Source: Kiritimatiellia bacterium
Lineage (GTDB): Bacteria; Verrucomicrobiota; Kiritimatiellia; WLWN01
Assembly (NCBI GenBank): GCA_012103575.1
Contig: WLWN01000001.1
Location: 1,676,538-1,740,537, forward strand
DNA: 64,000 nt
Direction: 5' to 3'
The notes under the pieces were generated by a model, which saw only the letters and a list, made by a program, of their open reading frames with translations, was not told where the DNA came from and ran no database searches. Position numbers and translations under genes: made by a program. Positions 2,658 to 58,693 of the stretch are shown piece after piece; positions within the stretch are counted from its first letter, which is position 1; the number at the start of each line of letters is the position of its first letter.

Positions 2658-4941
2658 ATGAAACGAATACGAATAATCTTTAGTTTTGTTTGGATGATGG
2701 GAATGAGTACTTGGGTTGCGCAAGGGATAACCGGAACCGTTGCGAATACGAGTGACAGTGGTGTGGGGTCATTCCGAGATGCCATTCAGCAGATCAATGC
2801 GAGTAGTGATGCCTCTAATGTGACCAACTTCGACATTCCAGGGGCTACACCCCATGTCATTTTTCAAACCAGTATTGATGGATGGCCAGCGATTACAAAT
2901 CAAGTGCTTATTGATGGATATAGTGAACCGGATTATGCCAGATCTCCGGTGGTTGTGCTGCAATACCTTCCTGGTGCTGGCGAAGAAGGGTTGAAGATAC
3001 AAGGAAACGGCAGTATTGTGCAAGGGTTACAGATTGCTGACTTTGAAGATTCTTTTGTTTGTTGCGGGATTTCCCTTAATGCTGATAACTGTGTCGTAGA
3101 GGGATGTCATATTTTCAGCAACGGAACAGGTATCTCTGTTCTTGGCAATGTCAATGTTATAGGTGGCACGAACGGAAATATCGTTTCTGGAAATCCAAAT
3201 ACGGGTATAGAGCTAATTTCTAGTTCAAATGATGTTTTGGGGAACTATATTGGAACAGATATAACAGGGACTACTAGTGGGGGCAGCCAAGCCGCAGGTA
3301 TAGGATTATCTAGTCTATCATCGCATAACACCATTGGAGGAACGTCTGAGTGGATGCGCAATATTATTTCGGGGAATAGTATAGGTATTAGAGCATAGCA
3401 GGTTCTAACCATCTTGTCTGCGGTAATTACATCGGAACCGATAAAGATGGATTAACGGCGGTCCCGAACACCCAGGGAATAGGTATCTTTTCTCCTAGTC
3501 ATGTCATCGGACCAGAAGATGTGATCGGCGGAAATGTAGAAGAGGGAATTTTAATAAGTAACACGGGGCCTAATAATAAAATTATTGGCAATCAAATTGG
3601 AATTCACACAGTGACGGGGACTACCTTTTCGATTTCTAATCTAGGTAACGGAATCCAAATGGAAAGTAGTGGGAATGTTGTGGGCGGGTCTAACACCGTA
3701 GACCGAAATTTTATCGGTGGGAACATAGGCTTTGGAGTCTATATGCTGGAAAGCAACGCCTTCAATAATGCCGTGATCGGCAATTATATTGGAACGGGTA
3801 TATCTGAAGCGAAAGGCTTTGGACATAGCTTCGGAATACGGATTGTGTCCTCTGCAAATAATAATCAGATAGGGGGACCCAATGTTGCTGAAGGGAATCT
3901 AATCGTAGGCAGTACATCTGTAGGGGTGGCCATTACGAGCTCCAGTTCGAACAGGGTTACGGGAAATCGCATTGGGCGGTCATTGGCAGGAAACACGATT
4001 CCAAATCAAGTAGGTGTATTTATCGAAGGTTCGAGTAGCAACAATACGGTCGGCGGGACTAATTAGTGGAGAAGGGAATCTGATAGCCGGAAATGATACA
4101 GAGGGGGTCTTCATCCAAGGAAGTTCTTCTATTGACAATGGAGTGTTGGGAAATTTGATATATGACAATGATGGTGCTGGAATGGGCTCTGACTCAATCA
4201 GCTTGGCAAGCGGTGCGAATGAGTCACAAACGAATCCTGTTATTACGAGCGTCATTAATAACGGGTTTAATACGCTTGCAAGTGAGACATTGGATGCGAG
4301 CTCGCTGACGACCTATCGCTTGGAATTCTTTGCCAACAGTTCTCCTTGTTTGATTGGTACGGGAGAGGGCGAGAGGTTTCTTGGGACCGAAAATTTAGAT
4401 AGTTTTTTTGGTAACAGTTTTTCTGTAACTTTACCACATGTTCCTGAAGGCGGTTTTGTTTCCGCAACAGCAACCAAAATAAGTTCAGGCATTTTCTTTC
4501 CGGAGAGTCATAATGACACTTCAGAAATGTCACCTTGTGTGCCCGTAGTCTTATTTAGTGATGGCGATAACGACGGCATTCCAGATCAGTGGTAGAATGC
4601 TAGTGGCGCTAATTCAAGTCTCGATGATTCAGGGATTGATACAGATGGCGATTCATTTACTACCTATGAAGAATATGTATGGGATACAGATGCAGGTGAT
4701 GTGAATAGTTTTCCACAGATTACATCGGTTTCTAACGGACCTGGAAACGTCATGGTTTCTTTCCCTTCCTCTTCAACCCGTTTCTTCCAATTAGAAGCCA
4801 ATACAAGTCTAACCAATGCAAACGGGGTGGCATCCATTGACCATTCAAGCTGTGCAGGGAATTGACGGTACGCAGACGCTTTCTGACCCCGATACGGGTT
4901 CATTCGATCAACGGTTTCATCGGGTTCAGGGAGGGTTCTAG
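2658..4941 (+). pseudogene. Tandem paralog of the beta-helix repeat protein, carrying a signal peptide and multiple frameshifts plus an in-frame TAG
   Basis: Reading continuity passes through the ORFs 2658-3398, 3521-4066 and 4014-4595 and the downstream frame. Frameshifts sit near 3395 and 4060. At 4593-4595 the sequence reads DQW*, where copy 1 has DQWE. The C-terminus is colinear with copy 1. Confidence 0.6.
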
Positions 4942-5071: not shown

Positions 5072-6151
5072 ATGCCTCAACAAATAACAGTCGATTTAGG
5101 TGAACGTTCTTATCGCATTCATATTGCTTCCGGACTGTTGAACCAACTGGGTAACTTGTGCATTGAGCAGTCATTCGGTCAACGGTGTATGATTGTATCT
5201 GACTCCAATGTAGATACGCATTATGGTGATTCGTGTGAATATTATTTAAAGAAGGCTGGTTTCTTGCCATGTCGAGTCGTTGTTCCCGCGGGTGAAAAGT
5301 CTAAAAGTTTACAGGAATTATCGACTATTTATGATATCGCGATAGACCATCAACTAGACCGTTCCTCCTTCATTGTTGCATTAGGAGGCGGTGTGGTTGG
5401 TGATTTAGCGGGTTATGCAGCAGCGAGTTTTCTTCGAGGTATACCCTGTGTTCAAATGCCTACCAGTTTATTAGCGATGGTGGATAGTGCGGTAGGAGGT
5501 AAAACCGGGGTGAACCTTCCGCAAGGGAAGAATCTGATTGGTGCGTTTCATCAACCGACATTTGTTTTGGCGGATCTTAATACCCTCAAAACGTTGCCCA
5601 AAAGGGAATATATGTCGGGAATGGCTGAAATCATTAAATATGGTGTGATTCGAGATCTGAGTTTGTTTCAGACTTTAGAAAATCAGACCGCCGAGCTACT
5701 TCAAGTTGTCCCTGAAGTTTTGGAACCGATTATTGCCCGGTCCTGTCAAATCAAAGCTGAAGTTGTTCAGCTCGATGAACGTGAAGGGGGGCTCCGATCG
5801 ATCTTGAATTTTGGGCATACGGTTGGACATGCCATTGAACAAGCTTCAGGCTATAAACGATATCTTCATGGAGAAGCCATTGCTTTGGGTATGGTTTTTG
5901 CGGCAAAGCTGTCTGTCCACCAAAAAGAATTTCCGTCAATCGCATGCGATCACCTTGTTGCATTGCTCGAATCGTTCAATTTACCTATCAAAGTGTCTGA
6001 TTTGGCGTGGGCTGACTTACGGAAAGCGATTGGCGCGGACAAAAAAACAGTCAATGCGACCCCTTACTTTGTTCTGGCCGAAGAGATGGGTAAGGTCGCT
6101 TATGGCTGCGAGGTGGCTGAAGACGTTCTTGAGCAAGCTTGGTCATCATAA
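5072..6151 (+). CDS. aroB: 3-dehydroquinate synthase
   Basis: MPQQITVDLGERSYRIHIASGLL is followed by the nucleotide-binding GGGVVGDLAGY motif and metal-binding His residues, a typical AroB signature. The ATG at 5072 is preferred over the TTG at 5045. Confidence 0.85.
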   Translation: MPQQITVDLGERSYRIHIASGLLNQLGNLCIEQSFGQRCMIVSDSNVDTHYGDSCEYYLKKAGFLPCRVVVPAGEKSKSLQELSTIYDIAIDHQLDRSSFIVALGGGVVGDLAGYAAASFLRGIPCVQMPTSLLAMVDSAVGGKTGVNLPQGKNLIGAFHQPTFVLADLNTLKTLPKREYMSGMAEIIKYGVIRDLSLFQTLENQTAELLQVVPEVLEPIIARSCQIKAEVVQLDEREGGLRSILNFGHTVGHAIEQASGYKRYLHGEAIALGMVFAAKLSVHQKEFPSIACDHLVALLESFNLPIKVSDLAWADLRKAIGADKKTVNATPYFVLAEEMGKVAYGCEVAEDVLEQAWSS

Positions 6152-17380: not shown

Positions 17381-19037
17381 CTGAATCCGTTAGCTATCGC
17401 TTCGGAAGGCGTTTTGGGGCTCAAAAGCTGAAAATTTTTTCCTTGAGATGCTCGCTTTTGGGCGGATTGGGACCGGCAAGTATCACCCTGATGAATTTTT
17501 TGAGCGTACAGGTCAGATTCACTCTGATTTGGCCATTTTGGGGCGTAGGCCTCCTTGGGCAGTCGCCTTAGAGTATTGTTAAAGGTGCACGGAGGGCTAT
17601 GCGAAGGAATGGGCAATATCTTGTATCACTTCAAACCAGCGACAACGCTTGCCAAAGTGAAGTTCAATTCGTCCGGCGTGGCGGACCAATCGAACCGCGC
17701 AATAAACGATATTTTTGAGAACCGTTTTGATTCGCCAGCGCGGGATGTTGATTTTCTGCGGGGCAAGCCCAGCCCGTTTGATGACCTCTTGGCCAAGACC
17801 GCGCAATAGGTTGAAGGCCACCATGGCGCATAACAGAATAATCTTATTGGCACAGGGTCTCCCCGAAGGCAATCGCTCAACATCAAGATCGCTTTTGAGT
17901 TCACTGTGGTACTGCTCGCTGGGGCCATGTCCATGATAGAGATCTAGCACCGTCTTGGCACGACAAGAGAGGTTCGTCCACCAGGTGTTCACCTCAAGTT
18001 TAGGAACCAAAAGTTTCTGACCATCGATATCGATGGTGCGTTCAATCACTTCGAAGGCCACCGGGACACAAGGGTGGTTTTGGTCACCACCGGGATGGAA
18101 ATGATCGAAAAAGCCTGTGTAAACGTTCTTGCCTTCACGACTGTCTTGTTTGTCTCCAACTCGGCGTGCAAGGGCCAGCATTTGTTCAGGACATTCGCGG
18201 CGAGGATTTCGCTTTACGATAAAATAATGATCCCCAAAAGCGTCGAAGTTATCGGCCGCAGCGTTGCCACTATCAAGCCGAAGCAAACATTTTCCACCCA
18301 GGCCCAGGGTTTGGAGCGTTTCAACGCTGCGGGCAATAAACGCGGTCGTTCCCGACTGACAATGTTGTTTGCCGGGTCGAAGTTCGCACTCAAGCATGTG
18401 GCCTTGAGTGCCCACATAGGCAAATATCGGGGCGTAACCATCATGGCCCTTATAGGTGTAGGAAACGCCTTCTTTCGAAGAGCCTGAGTGATCCAAAGGG
18501 CTCACATCGATATCGACGGGAACAAGATCAAGCCCTTCGACATCTACCTAGCCAAAGGGGCCCGAGGAAAGAAGTTCGGTGTTGAGTTTGCGTAGCCCCA
18601 CATGGGTTCTGGCTGGGGGCAGGTCGTCGAAACGACGTCGGAACACCGGCTCAGAGGCTACTTTTTTAACTCCCCTTTTTAAGTCTAAAGGCATTCATAA
18701 AAATCTCATCACCCCGGTACAGGTCGATATCATTGAAATCGGTTCGACCGTTGCAAAGTAAGCCGATCTGGGTAAGGAGGATCTCCCGATCAGAGATCGC
18801 ATCGGAGCGGCGTGGTTGAAAATTGGAGGGAAGAATCCGTTGAGCATGATCCTCAAGCAGCAGGCCGCAAAGATGATTTCCGCTTGTGCTGTTGAGTTCG
18901 CTCTTGCCAGTCTTTATTTTATATTGTTTCATATACACACCTGTTGGGGTGGGGTTGTTTGTTTGAATACGGGTATGCTCCCCGCTTTAGCCCAACAGGT
19001 AATGAAAAATCGTCAGATTTTATCTGACGGATTCAGG
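17381..19037 (-). mobile_element. IS1380-family insertion sequence, copy 1
   Basis: The terminal inverted repeats are CCTGAATCCGTCAG and CTGACGGATTCAGG. The element is flanked by ATTGAC on both sides, a candidate target-site duplication. It is near-identical to 56075-57730. Confidence 0.75.
17597..18938 (-). pseudogene. IS1380-family transposase, frameshifted
   Basis: The N-terminal 90 aa are encoded by 18666-18938 and the C-terminal 302 aa by 17597-18505. The two parts lie in different frames. Confidence 0.7.
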
Positions 19038-28271: not shown

Positions 28272-28446
28272 AAGAAGTTCAGGTTTTCTGAAAACGCTAC
28301 TTGGACCTTCGTCAAAAGCGCGAATTCAAGTAGTAAGTGCAATATTCTTTGAGATAAGAGAAATGAAAACTTTATTGAACATTTGGTTAGGAGTTTTGTA
28401 TCCACGGGTTTTTCTGGGTCTATTATTAGAGCGCTTCACGATTGAG

Positions 28447-29417
28447 GTGTCGCGATGTAGCACGAAGAAAACCAGCCGATTACCTCGTCGGGAGAAACCT
28501 CTTCGAACGCTTGTGTGAGCGCTTCAGATAGTTCCTGCGGGCTGCAAGGCTGCCCAACCGATTCTTTATCTTGCCCCACATTTTTTCAATGGGGTTGGAA
28601 TCGGGGCTGTAGGGTGGAAGGAATCTTACATGGGCCCCACATGACTCAATGAGTTTAATGACCTTGGGATTGTGATGGACGCGAAGATTGTCCATGATGA
28701 CGATGTCTTCAGGTGAAAGAGTCGGGAGAAAAACCCGGCGAATATATTCTCCAAAAACAGCCGTGTCTGTCGCCCCCTCCCTCTCCATGGCCGCTGTTGT
28801 TCCGTCCAGGCGGACTGAAAAAATCAAGGTGGTGGTACACCAATGTCCATGAGGCGTTTTGGCAAAAAGCCTGTTCCCGCCCAACGCCCGGCCCCGCAGA
28901 CAAGTCATATTCGTTTTCGCCCCGGATTCATCAATAAAGACAAGGCGACTTGGATCAAGTTTGGCTACCTCTTGGATCCACTGCTTTCTCAAGAGATTTA
29001 CATCCGCCCGGTCTTGCTCGCTGGCGTGAAGCGTTTCTTTTATACCGGCAGCCCAACCGATTCAACGCCCGCTGTACGGCCATGATCGACCCCTTCACGC
29101 CGCTCATGTTCTTGAGTTCTTCAAGCGTTGCATCGGGATGTTTGCCCCCCAGTTGAGCCAACGCCTTGAGCTGCTCGCTGTAGAGGGCCTGACGATGCCC
29201 ACGCGGTCGGGGAGCGGTCTGTCCGGTTTCGTTGAAACGAGAGAGCCCACGCTGAAACGTTCTAAGATCTACACGATAAGAAGATACGATATCGGCCTGG
29301 GAACCTTTGCCCATTTTGTAGGCATCTATCGCACGCCGCCGGATTTCTGCTGTTGCTATACTCATGTCATGGAGCATAGATCTTCTAAAGAGGCATTTCA
29401 ATCGTTAAATGCTCTAG
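28447..29417 (-). mobile_element. IS630/Tc1-family insertion sequence, copy 1 (degenerate)
   Basis: Ends TAGAGCGCTTCACGATTGAG and CAATCGTTAAATGCTCTAG form terminal inverted repeats next to TA. The transposase frames (28480-28992 and 28955-29401) are frameshifted and carry the DDE region HWCTTTLI...VRLDGT. A second copy lies at 45006-45949. Confidence 0.7.
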
Positions 29418-29926
29418 CTTTGCCTTGGCCATTGAGCTCACGAAATTTGTATATAGCAACAGTACTTTCTTTACTGCTCTCTTGGTATGCAAAAAATGCA
29501 GCTACGTATGGCGACCGAGTCCAATCTAGTAAAGGCGTCGGAAAACCATGATGCCGAATATAAACCATAAATCCGTAATTCTCAGGAGATGAAGGTTCAT
29601 CTCTATTCTCAAATACTGTTTCCCAGTTTTGATCTGTTAGCGATTCAAATGCCGCGATTGTCGGCTTAAGGATCTTTGTGTTGTATTCTATGATTGCAAG
29701 TAGTTCATCGTTTCGTCTTTCAAGTGTCGATTCAAGTTTCCACGAAGCACATTTATGGCCCCTAAAGAGGAGCTCGGAAAAATAGTAGTCCGCTTTGCTA
29801 AGGCGCTGCTCACCCTTTTGTAATTCCTTTTAGCCCAAATGGTTCGTGCAGAAAACCGCGTTTAACTGACGGATCCAGGATAGAGTTATCTGGAATTAAT
29901 TCGGTATATCTTTTTGACATAGACAT
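29398..29926 (-). pseudogene. Disrupted small gene encoding an FRG-motif protein, sitting in the cassette position upstream of intI
   Basis: There is a 144-codon open frame (29398-29829) with no start codon, reading ...YYFSELLFRGHKCASWKLESTLERR...YIRHHGFPTPLLDWTRSPYVAAFFAY.... An ATG-initiated 15-codon segment (29926 downward) lies in another frame. A partial 163-bp-family repeat sits between the two segments. The C-terminal codons run into the IS630 terminal repeat. Confidence 0.4.
29813..29879. repeat. Partial (one-arm) copy of the 163-bp palindromic repeat family
   Basis: ttttgtaattccttttagcccaaatggttcgtgcagaaaaccgcgtttaactgacggatccagg matches one arm of the elements at 44474, 51319 and 58518. 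The left boundary is approximate. Confidence 0.5.
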
Positions 29927-30005: not shown

Positions 30006-30993
30006 ATGAAGGCAACTTCAAAACCTAAAAAATTGCTTGATCAGGTTCGAGAAATCTTGCGAATCCATCATTATTCCATTCGAACGGAGCAGTCTTATGT
30101 AAAATGGGTCAAGGATTATATTTTTTTTAACGGGAAGAAACATCCTCAAGAAATGGGAATTCCTGAAGTCGAACGGTTTTTGACCCATCTTGCTGTCAAT
30201 AAAAATTTGGCTTCAGGAACCCAAAACTAGGCGTTAAATGCCCTTGTTTTCCTCTACAAAAAAGTGTTGAGAAAACCTTTGGGTGAAAAGATCAATGCGG
30301 TTCGAGCGCGGAAGAAACAGCGATTACCGGTTGTTCTAAGTAAAGAGGAAGTTAGCCGCCTTTTAAAGGCTATGTCTGGCGTCCATGAGCTTATGGCACA
30401 ATTGATGTATGGCTGTGGGCTTCGGGTTATGGAAGTATTACGTTTACGGGTACAGGAGCTAGATTTTGATCAGGGGCTGCTTCTGGTTCGTCGCGGTAAG
30501 GGCGATAAAGATCGCTCTACTATCTTGCTGCCCGAATTACATGTGCCTCTGAAGGATCACGTAATCTTTGTCAGAAAACTGTATGAACAAGATGTAGAGA
30601 ATGGTACTTGCAATGTATATCTTCCTCATGCCCTTGCACAAAAGTATCGAGGGGGGCCCCGCGCATGGAACTGGCAATATGTATTCGCGTCCAAAAGCCT
30701 CTCTGTTGACCCTCGAGCAGGTGTAAGGCGTCGTCACCATATGGATGAAAGCAGTATTCAAAAATCGGTGGTGCATGCTGCTTGTTTGGTATAGATCCCC
30801 CAAGAAAGTTACCTGTCAGACCTTACGCCATTCTTTTGCTACTCATCTACTCGAAGCAGGGACCAATATTTGCATGGTACAAGAGCTTTTGGGTCATAAA
30901 GATGTAAAAACAACACAGATCTATACTCATGTTATGAAAAGAGACTTTCATCAGATCAAAAGCCCGTTAAGTATGTTGCTTCAGGCTACCTGA
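30006..30993 (+). pseudogene. intI: Integron integrase (IntI-family tyrosine recombinase) with an in-frame TAG and frameshifts near the C-terminus
   Basis: N-terminus LLDQVREILRIHHYSIRTEQSYVKWVKDYIFF. The IntI-specific additional domain reads [55 protein letters not shown]. The catalytic C-terminus reads [41 protein letters not shown] at 30228-30230; frame changes around 30775-30800. Confidence 0.85.
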
Positions 30994-44438: not shown

Positions 44439-44473
44439 AAATTTGAAAGATAACAAGAGGGCTCTGTCTTTTT

Positions 44474-44636
44474 CCTGGATCCGTCAGTTAAACGTGGGAT
44501 TTCTGTGCGAATGGTTTGGAGGCAAAAGGTTGCAAAAAAACGCAGGCGCACCCGCTGGGTACGTCGAGGCTTTTTTGTAATTCCTTTTGGCCCAAATGGT
44601 TCGTGCAGAAAACCGCGTTTAACTGACGGATCCAGG
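44474..44636. repeat. 163-bp palindromic repeat element, copy A
   Basis: Terminal arms CCTGGATCCGTCAGTTAAACG and CGTTTAACTGACGGATCCAGG, with a largely self-complementary interior and a central palindrome. Copies lie at 51319-51481 and 58518-58680 (the latter inverted). Confidence 0.7.
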
Positions 44637-45005
44637 TTTTTGTGTACAAAAACTGAATCCGACCGTAGGGCTCGAAATAGAACCTACTCCAAACGCCCTC
44701 TGTCTGACTTTCATTGGCACAGAGGGCGAGAGGGTTCGTGGAGATTTTCTGTTGACCCCCTCCAACTTCTGAAATGAAACATGGCTTAAACATATTTCAT
44801 CCTTCTCTCAGATCAAGCGCCTTCGCCTAGGCGTAGGTTGTGTGATCCGCATAAATATTGGCAAGTTAGGAAGGTCCGGTTGAATTTGGTCTCTCGTAAT
44901 TATCGCACAAGTCCTTTAAAAGCGTGCGAAAACTGTGAACCGGTATGCCTTCATAAGCAGGCTTGAGATAGTTAATCAACTGGATCATCGTTTTCAATAA
45001 CTTAG

Positions 45006-45949
45006 AGCGCTTCACGATTGAGGTGTTGCGATGTAGCACGAAGAAAACCAGCCGATTACCTCGTCGGGAGAAACCTCTTCGAACGCTTGTGTGATCGCTT
45101 CAGATAGTTCCTGCTGACTGCGGGCTGCAAGGCTGCCCAACCGATTCTTTATCTTGCCCCACATTTTTTCAATGGGGTTGGAATCGGGGCTGTAGGGTGG
45201 AAGGAATCTTACATGGGCCCCACATGACTCAATGAGTTCAATGACCTTGGGATTGTGATGGACGCGAAGATTGTCCATGATGACGATATCTTCAGGTGAA
45301 AGAGTCGGGAGAAAAAGTTGTTCCGTCCAGGCGGACCGAAGAAATCAAGGTGGTGGTACACCAATGTCCATAAGGCGTTTTGGCAAAAAGCCTGTTCCCG
45401 CCCAACGCCCGGCCCCGCAGACGAGTCATATTCGTTTTCGCCCCGGATTCATCAATAAAGACAAGGCGACTTGGATCAAGTTTGGCCACCTCTTGGATCC
45501 ACTGCTTTCTCAAGAGATTTACATCCGCCCGGTCTTGCTCGCTGGCGTGAAGCGTTTCTTTTATACCGGGAAACCGATTCAACGCCCGCTGTACGGCCAT
45601 GATCGACCCCTTCACGCCGCTCATGTTCTTGAGTTTTTCAAGCGTTGCATCGGGATGTTTGCCCCCCAGTTGAGCCAACGCCTTGAGCTGCTTTCTGCTG
45701 TAGAGGGCCTGACGATGCCCACGCGGTCGAGGAGCGGTCTGTCCGGTTTCGTTGAAACGAGAGAGCCCACGCTGAAACGTTCTAAGATCTACACGATAAG
45801 AAGATGCGATATCGGCCTGGGAACCTTTGCCCATTTTGTAGGCATCTATCGCACGCCGCCGGATTTCTGCTGTTGCTATACTCATGTCATGAAGTATAGA
45901 TTTTCTAGCGAGGCATTTTCAATCGTTAAATGCTCTAGTACTCCTCCAA
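45006..45949 (-). mobile_element. IS630/Tc1-family insertion sequence, copy 2 (degenerate)
   Basis: Same terminal repeats as copy 1. Transposase fragments 45012-45278 and 45292-45885 lie in different frames. Confidence 0.7.
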
Positions 45950-46236
45950 AATTAAATTGGCGAGTTAGGGTCAAATTAGACTGTTCCCAATGACGACAGG
46001 GGCCTTCCACCATCACAGCAACGCTGTGTAGGCATAGAGCCTGGGGTTTCAACCCCAGGAAGACTTGTGCCCTGTAGGGGCACTGTCTATTCTTCAGGGC
46101 GCAATCAGATGTGTTCCTGTTTCATTCCTGGGGTTGAAACCCCAGGCTCTATGCCTTTGTCCCTTTGGGACAATCCATAGGGTCAGTAAATCATTCACCC
46201 CCAATTCGCCAATTTAATTTTGGAGGAGTACTAGTG
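45947..46236. repeat. Roughly 290-bp nested palindromic element (MITE-like) abutting the IS630 end
   Basis: 29-bp perfect outer inverted repeats CTAGTACTCCTCCAAAATTAAATTGGCGA. 29-bp inner inverted repeats GGCATAGAGCCTGGGGTTTCAACCCCAGG, each itself a hairpin. A central hairpin GTGCCCTGTAGGGGCAC. Confidence 0.6.
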
Positions 46237-46377
46237 CACGATAAAGTTTACGGTTAAGTGATGAAGAATGAATATATTCGAGTGGGAGCAGATATTTTAA
46301 TCAAACAGGTTCTAAGGTGAGGGTCTTTGGTCAGAAGTCAGGACCACCGTTTTTCTTTCACGCAGCTTGCTGCATGA

Positions 46378-47512: not shown

Positions 47513-48736
47513 TTATAAGAGAGCATTACCCCACGAAACTTCTGGAGATCCTTTCAAGTCAGGAGGGTGTTTTTTTAACCGTTCAATCTTTCGGAGATGC
47601 TCCTCGATCTGCTTTTTGAGCTTGTAGGGGTCCAAAACTTCATATTGACCTTCGAGGGCCTTGACTTGTTCAAGACCAAGCAGTTGGCTCTGAACCAGTC
47701 GCTCATAAGGGGTCTTGGCTTTGTCATATTTTTTGATATACCGGCTTTGGATCCGCTTTTTGGACTTCAGCTTCATCGATGGACAAAAAAAATTGTTATA
47801 CTTTTCCCAGACAACATAGAGGTGGTTGATGACATCAACCAGATCAGGGTGTTCGAGTCGATCATACCCCAAACGTTGACGAACATGGGTCCAGTTCTTT
47901 TGTTCTACATGGGCATTATCATTTTTATGGTAGCTCCGTGACCGCGTATAGCCTACCGGCTTTTGACGGTTGCTAAAATAACGAACCAGGTGCCAATTTA
48001 AGAACTCCGAACCGTTGTCGGTATCGAATCCCAAAAGAGAAAAAGGGAGTTTTTCCTCTACGTCTTGGGTTTGCTTTTGAATCCCTCCATATCCTTTGTT
48101 CCAAACGGCACGTTGGGCCGTTCAACCCGTTACAATATCGGTATAGGTAATCGACCAGATGAAGTTTCCGCTCATCGATCCCCCACAATGGGCGACGGTG
48201 TCAGCTTCCAAATAGCCCGGTTGTTGAATATCCTGGTTGTCGATCCGCACAGGGATTTGATTTTTCAGGGTAGATCCTGGCTTCGTTGCGCTGTTTCGAT
48301 AGCGTCTATACCGGCTCCTTTCTGAGGCTAATAATCGGTCAATAGTCGCTGGACTTATATCGAGCAATTTAGAACGAATGGGGGCCGATAAAGCGCTATA
48401 GTGTTTGCTATAATCTCTGAGCCAGATCGGTAAAGCTTGTTGCAAACGTTTGCCGAACAGGCGCCCTGTTTGGTGCCAGATCGTTTTCAAAGCGGCTAAA
48501 AATTCAGGGTTGGCATAATAGCTTTTTCGGCCACGCTGCTTGGCCGAACGACGGATTTTTCCGCCGAGCAGTTTAATGGCGTATTTACGCTCATAGCCAC
48601 AGACTTGGCATACTTCATCAATGAGGCGTGTTTTATATCGTTTGCTGGCCCGTTTATACCGGTGACCCATTCGATGTATATATTCTTTTCTCGATTCGTA
48701 ACTCATACTTTTCATGCCCCCCTTTTTGGGTGTCAT
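47513..48736 (-). pseudogene. DDE (rve-superfamily) transposase/integrase, frameshifted
   Basis: N-terminal HTH part (48122-48736, ...YLEADTVAHCGGS) and C-terminal part (47513-48034, FDTDNGSEF...) lie in different frames. The IS family is uncertain (IS481- or ISNCY-like). Confidence 0.65.
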
Positions 48737-51302: not shown

Positions 51303-51318
51303 TGGGGAGACAAATAAT

Positions 51319-51481
51319 CCTAGATCCGGCAGCTAAACGTGGGGTTTCTGTGCGAATGCCTTGGAGACAAAAGATTGCAAAAAAACGTAGGCGCACCCAC
51401 GGGGTGCGTCGAGGCTTTTCTCTAATTCCTTTTGGCCCAAATGATTCGTGCAGAAAACCGCGCTTAACCGCCGGATCTAGG
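51319..51481. repeat. 163-bp palindromic repeat element, copy C (diverged)
   Basis: Same architecture as copy A. The arms (CCTAGATCCGGCAGCTAAACG and its complement) carry paired compensatory changes relative to copy A. It fills the ybaB-mutL spacer. Confidence 0.7.
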
Positions 51482-51510
51482 ATAATCAATAGGAATGTAC
51501 AGATACCCCC

Positions 51511-56047: not shown

Positions 56048-56074
56048 GGTTTTTGATTGATGAAAGAATTAGAC

Positions 56075-57730
56075 CTGAATCCGTCAGATAAAATCTGATG
56101 ATTTTTCATTACCTGTTGGGCTAAAGCGGGGAGCATACCCGTATTCAAACAAACAACCCCACCCCAACAGGTGTGTATATGAAACAATATAAAATAAAGA
56201 CTGGCAAGGGCGAACTCAACAGCACAAGCGGAAATCATCTTTGCGACCTGCTGCTTGAGGATCATGCTCAACGGATTCTTCCCTCCAATTTTCAACCACG
56301 CCGCTCCGATGCGATCTCTGATCGGGAGATCCTCCTTACCCAGATCGGCTTACTTTGCAACGGTCGAACCGATTTCAATGATATCGACCTGTACCGGGGT
56401 GATGAGATTTTTATGAATGCCTTTGGACTTAAAAAGGGGAGTTAAAAAGGTAGCCTCTGAGCCGATGTTCCGACGTCGTTTCGACGACCTGCCCCCACCC
56501 AGAACCCATGTGGGGCTACGCAAACTCAACACCGAACTTCTTTCCTCGGGCCCCTTTGGCTAGGTAGATGTCGAAGGGCTTGATCTTGTTCCCGTCGATA
56601 TCGATGTGAGCCCTTTGGATCACTCAGGCTCTTCGAAAGAAGGCGTTTCCTACACCTAGAAGGGCCATGATGGTTACGCCCTGATATTTGCCTATGTGGG
56701 CACTCAAGGCCACATGCTTGAGTGCGAACTTCGACCCGGTAAACAACATTGTCAGTCGGGAACGACCGCGTTTATTGCCCGCAGCGTTGAAACGCTCCAA
56801 ACCCTGGGCCTGGGTGGAAAATGTTTGCTTCGGCTTGATAGTGGCAACGCTGCGGCCGATAACTTCGACGCTTTTGGGGATCATTATTTTATCGTAAAGC
56901 GAAATCCTCGCCGCGAATACCCTGAACAAATGCTGGCCCTTGCACGCCGAGTTGGAGACAAACAAGACAGTCGTGAAGGCAAGAACGTTTACACAGGCTT
57001 TTTCGGTCATTTCCATCCCGGTGGTGACCAAAACCGCCCTTGTGTCCCGGTGGCCTTCGAAGTGATTGAACGCACTATCGATATCGATGGTCAGAAACTT
57101 CTGGTTCCTAAACTTGAGGTGAACACCTGGTGGACGAACCTCTCTTGTCGTGCCAAGACGGTGCTAGATCTCTATCATGGACATGGCCCCAGCGAGCAGT
57201 ACCACAGTGAACTCAAAAGCGATCTTGATGTTGAGCGATTGCCTTCGGGGAGACTCTGTGCCAATAAGATTATTCTGTTATGCGCCATGGTGGCCTTCAA
57301 CCTATTGCGCGGTCTTGGCCAAGAGGTCATCAAACGGGCTGGGCTTGCCCCGCAGAAAATCAACATCCCGCGCTGGCGAATCAAAACGGTTCTCAAAAAT
57401 ATCGTTTATTGCGCGGTTCGATTGGTCCGCCACGCCGGACGAATTGAACTTCACTTTGGCAAGCGTTGTCGCTGGTTTGAAGTGATACAAGATATTGCCC
57501 ATTCCTTCGCATAGCCCTCCGTGCACCTTTAACAATACTCTAAGGCGACTGCCCAAGGAGGCTTACGCCCCAAAATGGTCAAATCAGAGTGAATCTGACC
57601 TGTACGCTCAAAAAATTCATCAGGGTGATACTTGCCGGTCCCAATCCGCCCAAAAGCGAGCATCTCAAGGAAAAAATTTTCAACTTTTGAGCCCCAAAAC
57701 GCCTTCCGAAGCGATAGCTGACGGATTCAG
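56075..57730 (+). mobile_element. IS1380-family insertion sequence, copy 2
   Basis: Termini CCTGAATCCGTCAG and CTGACGGATTCAG, flanked by ATTAGA on both sides. The transposase is split between 56173-56445 and 56696-57514, in different frames. Confidence 0.75.
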
Positions 57731-58517: not shown

Positions 58518-58680
58518 TCCTGGATCCGTCAGTTAAACGCGGTTTTCTGCACGAACCATTTGGGCCAAAAGGAATTACAAAAAAGCCTCGACGCACCCAG
58601 CGGGTGCGCCTGCATTTTTTTGCAACCTTTTGCCTCCAAAGCATTCGCACAGAAATCCCACGTTTAACTGACGGATCCAG
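58518..58680. repeat. 163-bp palindromic repeat element, copy B (inverted relative to copy A)
   Basis: Near-identical to copy A in reverse-complement orientation. The central palindrome reads CGCACCCAGCGGGTGCG. Confidence 0.7.
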
Positions 58681-58693
58681 GATAGTGTCAAAG

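Follow-up and report, generated by a model that had tools for sequence, protein, structure and literature searches.

What is the palindrome of roughly 290 bp that stands flush against a decayed IS630-family insertion sequence (IS) in this Kiritimatiellia genome, and is it one element at all? The locus lies in a stretch of 64,000 nucleotides of contig WLWN01000001.1 (assembly GCA_012103575.1), which is called the window in the following. An earlier note on this DNA had described outer inverted repeats, inner inverted repeats and a central hairpin, and had read them either as a non-autonomous miniature inverted-repeat transposable element (MITE) or as a structured RNA gene. The feature is real, and all three parts are present. 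We consider it probable that three selfish elements are stacked here, namely an IS630 copy, a MITE shell and a gene-less doublet of Y1-type hairpins, and that the copy in the window is an inert relic.

Anatomy and copies of the palindromic element

The element spans positions 45938-46231 (294 bp) with a TA at each side (45936-37 and 46232-33). The size given in the earlier note holds, whereas its start at 45947 lies about 10 nt inside the true one. The outer features, including the terminal inverted repeats (TIRs) and the putative target-site duplication (TSD), are the following. Contigs and loci recovered outside the window are designated by L and a number.

45938 to 46231, no strand: outer shell, a 294-bp element read as an IS630/Tc1-type MITE, with left arm 45938-46019, doublet 46020-46179 and right arm 46180-46231
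45936 to 45937, no strand: left TA, common to IS630 copy 1 and the MITE (...GCTC TA GTACTCC...), the same junction being found in L008
45938 to 45970, plus strand: left TIR, GTACTCCTCCAAAATTAAATTGGCGAGTTAGGG
46199 to 46231, minus strand: right TIR, 26 nt identical to the left one and 31 of 33 positions matching overall
46232 to 46233, no strand: right TA, putative TSD, junction GTAC TA G, i.e. CTAG

The outer arms (45931-45970 and 46199-46238) match to 93% over 40 nt. As had been claimed, they contain a perfect inverted repeat, CTAGTACTCCTCCAAAATTAAATTGGCGA, at 45934-45963 and 46206-46235, the perfect stretch extending over 28-30 nt; the TIR of the element can also be written as GTACTCCTCCAAAATTAAATTGGCGA. 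The inner inverted repeat (46030-46061 and 46125-46156, spacer 63 nt) is likewise perfect, although over 32 nt and not 29, and each of its arms contains an 8-bp hairpin of its own, CCTGGGGT-TTCA/TGAA-ACCCCAGG, at 46040-46059 and 46127-46146. The central hairpin GTGCCC-TGTAG-GGGCAC at 46067-46083 exhibits a loop of 5 nt instead of the 4 nt first proposed. Neither outer nor inner repeats were matched in 100 dinucleotide-preserving shuffles with up to 3 mismatches allowed, and the computed single-stranded DNA (ssDNA) fold of the element amounts to -98 kcal/mol (z = -15.6). The 294 bp hold only spurious open reading frames (ORFs) of at most 56 aa without any match in the protein databases, and blastx of the MITE arms against IS630 transposases revealed neither similarity nor a coding remnant. 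The stop codon of surE precedes the element by 145 nt; a search for a promoter or an intrinsic terminator in and beside it yielded nothing convincing. As stated earlier, it occurs once in the 64-kb window.

Further copies were found in L008 and L010, two contigs from metagenomes of the sponge Mycale hentscheli (Storey 2020, PMC7157528) with a GC content of 44.4-44.7%, compared to 44.3% in the window. The search for additional copies, proposed in the earlier note as a check, thus gave one full and one half copy in sponge metagenome contigs. The full copy (L008, 6806-7149) shares 98% identity with that of the window and is longer by two stretches in its interior (15 and 29 nt). Here, too, the neighbour is an IS630 copy, joined at the identical ...GGAGTAC TA GAGCATTT, while the flank on the other side differs (CATTAC TA GTACTCC). 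The half copy (L010b, positions 8038-8167 of L010) shows 100% identity; its end, ...GGAGTAC TA GGATGACC, does not adjoin IS630, and its broken centre is joined to a transposase pseudogene, decayed and from a second lineage of IS630. The three MITE copies are therefore seen in three contexts: downstream of surE in the window, next to an unrelated flank in L008, and fused to an IS630-family pseudogene in L010. All five shell ends seen in these copies sit in C-TA-G, and all three copies carry the core at identical shell/core junctions.

A further observation comes from a different site of L010. At 4483-4692 (L010a) the inner core occurs alone, from AACGCTGTGTAGG to GGGACAATCCATA, without outer TIRs and in an unrelated intergenic region. 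Its identity to the window core is 82-88% in aligned columns, its long indels match those of L008, and both segments that the window copy lacks (15 and 29 nt) are present. Because the core occurs alone at this site, the inner 160 bp (46020-46179) must be regarded as an independent element nested in the shell, and the single nested palindrome of the earlier note resolves into two layers. Without the core the shell measures about 132 bp, the core thus accounting for more than half of the length. The features of the core, with its three kinds of hairpins termed hpX, hp1 and hp2, are:

46020 to 46179, no strand: inner element, head-to-head doublet of Acido-Lenti-1-type modules, REPIN-like, with limits taken from the alignment with L010 4483-4692
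46014 to 46083, minus strand: left module, with hpX' 46067-46083 (GTGCCCCTACAGGGCAC), hp1' 46040-46059, linker, and an atypical distal hairpin CACAGC-AAC-GCTGTG at 46014-46028
46092 to 46172, plus strand: right module, with truncated hpX 46092-46102, hp1 CCTGGGGT-TGAA-ACCCCAGG 46127-46146, linker CTCTATGCCTT, and hp2 TGTCCC-TTT-GGGACA 46158-46172

Compared to L008 and L010 4483-4692, the core of the window carries internal deletions of 15 and 29 nt. With these 44 nt lost, hpX is kept whole on the left and only half on the right. The window copy, with these deletions, is most likely an inert relic without host function. Since all three MITE copies have the same junctions, insertion of the doublet into the MITE would predate the divergence of these copies, and the doublet would then have travelled as cargo.

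The shell itself is supported as a non-autonomous TA-flanked MITE of IS630/Tc1-mariner type with TIRs of 28-33 nt. It is small, has TIRs within the range of about 20-40 nt and no transposase gene, and is present in several copies in unrelated contexts. The MITE alternative of the earlier note was thus right in essence, with respect to the TIRs, the TA in CTAG, the missing coding capacity and the copies elsewhere. By a DDE cut-and-paste mechanism, with the transposase supplied in trans, the shell would have inserted into the TA of an NTAG site and duplicated this TA. As the tips of the MITE are G...C, every shell junction rebuilds CTAG.

Several candidates for further copies or a parent were discarded. 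The TIR core found 0 matches in 185,579 GTDB species genomes, a collection that does not include the source genome. A hit in L009 (28.7% GC) turned out to be a chance match to the TIR core, and a break of a Logan contig at 46206 is explained by the 30-nt inverted repeat of the element itself at k = 31. A search of 5.8 billion proteins with a chimera of the spurious ORFs gave nothing. In a scan of viral contigs the specific right-end block had 0 matches, and the 7 matches of a loose hairpin pattern were unrelated generic terminator-like hairpins. The pseudogene adjoining the half copy (L010, 7420-8037) is a decayed transposase of the second IS630 lineage, with 36-49% amino acid identity to the window IS630 and best database relatives at 53-58%. 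Its N-terminus is cut by a second MITE family, and the half copy of the palindromic element cuts it again at about residue 208. Conceivably the pseudogene represents the lost parent of the MITE; its relatives, the best of them only 53-58% identical and with TIRs GAGCGTTTTAAAT, did not lead to an autonomous parent.

Hairpin modules and Y1 transposase genes

The right module matches the Rfam family RF01687 (Acido-Lenti-1) at 46127-46172 on the plus strand with 34.2 bits (E = 3e-6 on 400 nt and 5e-4 on 64 kb). The Rfam scan that had been proposed for the palindrome therefore does return a match, albeit one below the gathering score of 37 bits. In the cmscan alignment model positions 1-46 are covered with all pairs formed, and the two-hairpin architecture with the GGCU linker is reproduced. 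The left module gives a partial match on the minus strand (46034-46059, 21.9 bits). The right module also aligns column by column with 72 units of the family described below, whose profile finds it with nhmmer at 46093-46173 (33 bits). The two blocks of the doublet read TGTGCCCTGTAGGGGCACTGT and TATGCCTTTGTCCCTTTGGGACAATCCATA, and the RNA fold computed for the inner element amounts to -103 kcal/mol (z = -12).

Acido-Lenti-1 was rated as a likely RNA, and head-to-head pairs as well as tandem arrays are already visible for Lentisphaera araneosa in its seed alignment (Weinberg 2010, PMC2864571). The L. araneosa seed units (NZ_ABCK01...) are repeated in tandem on the same strand, at periods of 69-74, 110-115 and 192-200 nt. 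The shortest period equals hp2, spacer, hp1 and linker, so that these are arrays of alternating hairpins. Many of the copies have an A-C mismatch in hp1, which is a G-T pair on the opposite strand.

To define the family, a pattern of 22 bases, GTTGAAACNNNNGGCTN{9,12}GTCSCNNNGSGAC, was derived from the window module and two seed members; less than one match is expected by chance. It was found in at least 119 loci, and the matches listed include Verrucomicrobiota, Planctomycetota, Acidobacteriota, Lentisphaeria, Armatimonadota, Hydrogenedentota and others. In nearly every match a third, hp2-type hairpin is located about 22 nt upstream, although it lies outside the pattern; the full module is accordingly one of about 90 nt (hpX, spacer, hp1, linker, hp2). 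Its general order is hpX, about 22 nt, hp1 with loop GTTGAAAC, the GGCT linker and hp2, and this full form is present in the copies of L008 and L010 4483-4692. A profile search among the loci listed revealed 233 modules in 140 clusters, of which 55 are head-to-head doublets in (-,+) orientation with 5-40 nt between the modules, 4 are (+,-) and 71 are singletons. The modules of L008 share the (-,+) orientation.

Two properties of this family bear on whether it acts as RNA or DNA. Neighbouring genes show no preferred orientation (crude ORF calls gave 26, 21, 18 and 16 for the four orientation classes), which fits dispersed insertions and not terminators or promoters; the members are scattered genome-wide in intergenic sites rather than in cassette arrays. 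In hp1 four variable stem pairs covary: double changes occur in 20-37 of 76 sequences, and there are 43 stem variants. The pairs are 96.6% Watson-Crick, and G-T (8) does not exceed A-C (6) among 786 pairs. Such a missing wobble excess is the pattern expected of pairing selected in DNA, not RNA. In several Verrucomicrobia metagenome-assembled genomes (MAGs), at L065, L076, L077, L104 and L134, the motif GAATTTCCGAAAGGCATTAG is shared 10-35 nt outside hp2. With this motif in several unrelated genomes, the element may extend past the hairpin modules in some lineages.

When the ORFs near the modules were clustered, a single family dominated, a protein of about 150 aa. These proteins match Pfam Y1_Tnp (PF01797) with 71-103 bits and the NCBIfam IS200/IS605 model with 62-76 bits (cutoff 55), whereas the RAYT model (NCBIfam NF047646) is not matched, the Y1 proteins reaching only 22-25 bits against a cutoff of 80. 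The intact ones all exhibit [DN]H.H, Y---Q--HH and a conserved C-terminal tail. A Y1_Tnp gene is found within tens of nucleotides of modules in 14 of the 119 loci listed, and in about 7 of these 14 it lies between a (-) and a (+) module (e.g. L023, L032, L039, L043, L110). Rfam RF01687 matches at the gathering threshold directly flank Y1 genes in L039, L110, L032, L092, L054 and L075, and the versions with a Y1 gene are bounded by the hairpin modules themselves. In three loci (L075 554-1661, L054 5619-7019 and L087 1340-2359) the Y1 gene stands amid clusters of 5-7 modules, a REPtron-like layout that resembles the tnpA_REP locus of E. coli.

According to literature, Y---Q--HH is the signature of TnpA_Y1 subclass 1.2, which generally lacks terminal secondary structures or IS properties and is mostly cyanobacterial and from Bacteroidetes (Quentin 2018, PMC6006769). 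Head-to-head dimers of repetitive extragenic palindromic (REP) sequences, REP dimers nested in longer palindromes, and TIR repeat families on both sides of Y1 genes of Koribacter and Rhodopirellula have been described (Di Nocera 2013, PMC3733652). Both of these genomes also supply Rfam seeds for Acido-Lenti-1.

The core of the window is, on this evidence, best read as a gene-less doublet of a Y1-associated family, similar to a REPIN or a palindrome-associated transposable element (PATE). If REPIN-RAYT and IS200/IS605 are taken as models, the doublet would be mobilised in trans, its hairpins being recognised in the form of folded ssDNA. The structured-RNA alternative of the earlier note keeps an echo in the Rfam match, but the genomic behaviour points towards transposon-end DNA hairpins (inverted doublets, dispersed intergenic sites, Y1 flanks, no G-T excess), and what prompted an RNA gene is better explained at the DNA level. 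A broader proposal, whose chances of being right or wrong we hold to be evenly balanced, is that Acido-Lenti-1 is not a small RNA (sRNA) but the ssDNA recognition module of subclass-1.2 Y1/HUH transposases. It would represent a second REPIN-RAYT-like system across Verrucomicrobiota, Planctomycetota, Acidobacteriota, Lentisphaerota and others, with gene-less doublets recurrently inside DDE-type MITEs (TA here, a 9-bp duplication in another MAG), one mobile class hitch-hiking on another.

The other MAG is MFD03726.bin.2.170. Its repeats (L021 ~760-1030, L028 ~130-400 and L136 ~5100-5380) have TIRs GGGTSCGATYAAAAGC... and 9-bp direct duplications (GTTTATTTC, GCCTCTCCC), and are a second, independent case of a doublet in a DDE-type MITE. 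For such recurrent nesting either a preference of doublets for palindromic targets or the spread of doublet-carrying MITEs could be responsible.

Neighbouring insertion sequences

The IS630 copy next to the element was delimited by aligning both IS630 copies of the window:

45005 to 45935, minus strand: decayed IS630-family copy 1, TIRs GAGCGCTTCACGATTGA and GAGCATTTAACGATTGA, flanking TA at 45003-04 and 45936-37; not part of the element

Both copies are frameshifted. In copy 1, Pfam domains are recognised as DDE_3 (57 bits, ORF 45012-45278) and HTH (ORF 45292-45885). Copy 2 (28426-29415) terminates in ...GCTC TA GCTTTGCC with no palindrome beyond, and because this flank is unrelated the palindrome lies outside IS630, as the earlier note had concluded. 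The abutment it reported is flush, yet not base to base: IS630 ends at 45935 and the element starts at 45938, with the TA at 45936-37 common to both and putatively a TSD of each. IS630-family elements duplicate TA in CTAG/NTAN targets. Full-length IS630 relatives that were retrieved are also sited in C-TA-G or C-TA-A. With CTAG as a preferred target of the family, an IS630 copy flush against the MITE with the TA in common is explained. The junctions of TA-duplicating elements regenerate a CTAG or TTAG target, and the abutment is probably not a coincidence.

The host is an IS-rich sponge symbiont of the Planctomycetes-Verrucomicrobia-Chlamydiae (PVC) group, Kiritimatiellota-like, and may be the symbiont of that phylum reported from Mycale hentscheli (Storey 2020). 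Its TopA in the window shares at most 70% identity with proteins of Verrucomicrobia and Kiritimatiellae MAGs, and the exact SurE protein adjoining the element matches only contigs of less than 2 kb from Mycale hentscheli metagenomes (PMC7157528). The window is dense in IS30, IS110, IS1380-like and IS630 copies and in a second MITE family. Three IS30-like copies, one IS110, an rve-type pseudogene (47513-48736) and a pair of IS1380-like copies indicate heavy IS expansion. The latter (DDE_Tnp_1_4) form an inverted repeat of 1657 bp with 99% identity (17381-19037 and 56074-57730) bracketing 37 kb, and inversion of the region containing the element could result from it. The second MITE family (about 165-175 bp) was found in the window at 44462-44636, 51317-51482, 58518-58693 and, partially, 29816-29880, and outside it in L008 (4539-4716) and L010 (7257-7419), where it truncates an IS630-family pseudogene. 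Its copies are nearly perfect full-length palindromes with ends TCCTGGATCCGTCAGTTAAACGYGG. At 30264-30794 (+) a tyrosine recombinase fragment of 176 aa is encoded, apparently truncated (Pfam Phage_integrase, 50 bits), the N-terminal ...RLPVVLSKEEV... of which resembles integron-integrase or Xer-type enzymes.

Weight of the explanations and known systems

Several points weigh against the pile-up of an IS630 copy, a MITE shell and a Y1-type doublet. Both TA and CTAG are palindromic, so that, although TA within CTAG was seen at five of five ends, a duplication looks the same as an extension of the TIR in these data without an empty site. No autonomous IS with the TIRs of the MITE was found among the 185,579 species genomes, to which the source genome does not belong, and the window IS630 as well as the closest relatives of the pseudogene in L010 have different TIRs (GAGC...). 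A Y1 transposase gene is absent by tblastn from the window and from L001-L010. Recognition of ssDNA and mobilisation by the Y1 protein are inferred from analogy. With 34.2 bits the window module stays below the RF01687 gathering threshold, and the distal hairpin of the left module is not the canonical GTCCC...GGGAC. Finally, outer inverted repeats also accompany about 20% of the doublets of other genomes, and shell and core could be one integrated design instead of a nesting accident.

This last point leads to an explanation that we regard as unlikely, in which outer arms and doublet together constitute one type of non-autonomous transposon whose real termini are the outer repeats. It would account for the core in all three shell copies of the window type, for the doublets of MFD03726.bin.2.170 inside a TIR-bounded repeat of about 280 bp, for flanking inverted repeats above shuffled controls at about 10 of 48 doublets, and for the outer motif common to several Verrucomicrobia loci. 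The outer arms are, however, wholly different between lineages, and the duplications differ as well (TA here, 9 bp in MFD03726), which fits different DDE-type shells; the stand-alone doublet of L010 and about 80% of the doublets elsewhere have no outer inverted repeat, and where a Y1 gene is present the hairpin modules form the boundary.

Quite improbable in our view are structured sRNA genes, with the right half as an Acido-Lenti-1 sRNA that acts in trans or stabilises or terminates the surE transcript, the palindromes being incidental. The near-threshold Rfam match with correct two-hairpin architecture, the covariation within the family together with the published rating as likely RNA (PMC2864571), and the surE stop codon 145 nt upstream would agree with it. 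It is at odds with two inverted copies within transposon TIRs, the same sequence in unrelated contexts, the lack of a convincing promoter or intrinsic terminator, stems without excess of G-U over A-C, unbiased orientation of flanking genes, the physical linkage to Y1 transposase genes, and the internal deletions of the window copy. That the palindrome is an extended or alternative IS630 end, moving with IS630 as a composite unit, is already largely refuted and can be considered highly improbable. The junction between the transposase-start end of IS630 and the left arm of the MITE is indeed identical in the window and L008, with similar divergence (about 2-3%) in the IS630 and MITE parts, which fits either one ancestral event or two. 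Copy 2 of IS630, however, terminates at the same base with an unrelated flank, the half copy of L010 ends in TA followed by DNA other than IS630, and the TIRs of IS630 and of the palindrome have no sequence relationship, the palindrome carrying a TIR of its own, not one of IS630, at its far end.

The feature is ordinary in kind, nested and decayed mobile DNA, and instructive for the tie of an orphan Rfam "RNA" to a Y1/HUH subclass. For this genome it carries little weight and merely adds to the evidence that IS and MITE copies have expanded in this sponge symbiont. RF01687, a "candidate structured RNA" for 16 years, is now testable as the DNA hairpin partner of a Y1/HUH subclass. If this were true, the Rfam family would be re-annotated and the REPIN-RAYT model would apply outside Proteobacteria as well, and to another branch of the transposase family, with a protein of about 150 aa and oligonucleotides of 20-45 nt as a simple in vitro system. 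For annotators it is a caution that covariation in hairpin repeats alone does not indicate RNA.

Among known systems, the shell is comparable to IS630-family MITEs such as RUP of Streptococcus pneumoniae, presumably mobilised by IS630-Spn1, and the TA-duplicating Correia elements of Neisseria. It shares with them the small non-coding form, TIRs of about 26-33 nt, TA in NTAG context and multiple copies in an IS630-rich genome. Unlike them it has no cognate autonomous IS that could be found, consists for more than half of its length of an unrelated nested element, and was seen in three copies. The right module resembles RF01687 in its 8-bp hp1 with UGAA-type loop, GGCU linker and 5-bp hp2 (GUCCC NNN GGGAC), in a form near-identical to the seed members soil_Contig16071 and wf3_AHAI13594 and in a PVC host. 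It differs by a score under the threshold and a linker shifted 3 nt against the consensus; moreover, the entry describes a 46-nt sRNA of unknown function, whereas here the match forms one side of an inverted doublet, has an additional hairpin upstream of it and is enclosed by a MITE.

Other assignments were rejected. Integron attC sites (R''/L''...L'/R', RYYYAAC...GTTRRRY) were considered in view of a reported association with group II introns and the recombinase fragment at 30264-30794, but no R boxes are present and the family is dispersed, not arrayed. CGTC-tagged REP sequences, reported without a transposase partner, fit only superficially: hp2 often starts with CGTC, but geometry of stem and loop differ (Di Nocera 2013, PMC3733652). 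A canonical REP/RAYT system does not apply to modules without GTAG tag and proteins below the RAYT cutoff.

The core is closest to three Y1-associated systems. As in PATEs, the non-autonomous derivatives of IS200/IS605, it has no gene, retains subterminal hairpins, and shows neither a TIR at its very ends nor an obvious TSD, but the hairpins at IS200/IS605 ends are on the same strand whereas the modules here are mutually inverted. With TnpA_Y1 subclass 1.2 and the TIRtron-TIRYT systems it shares the protein signatures and inverted repeats at the gene flanks that are also dispersed families (Koribacter versatilis, Rhodopirellula baltica); in contrast, hairpin modules conspicuously flank the Y1 genes found here, which come mainly from PVC bacteria and Acidobacteriota. 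The REPIN-RAYT systems and REPtrons (Bertels & Rainey 2011, PMC3116915; PMC3733652; PMC6006769) likewise show a head-to-head hairpin pair with short spacer, foldable into one long hairpin, homologous repeats in inverted orientation around a Y1/HUH gene, a predominance of doublets, and dimers nested in palindromes. The present family differs from them in its three-hairpin modules of about 90 nt, compared to a single REP of 20-40 nt, without GTAG or CGTC tag, in a protein that fits the IS200/IS605 model with the subclass 1.2 signature and not RAYT (YI[HR][QN]NP), and in loops and hp2 that are conserved in sequence across several phyla.

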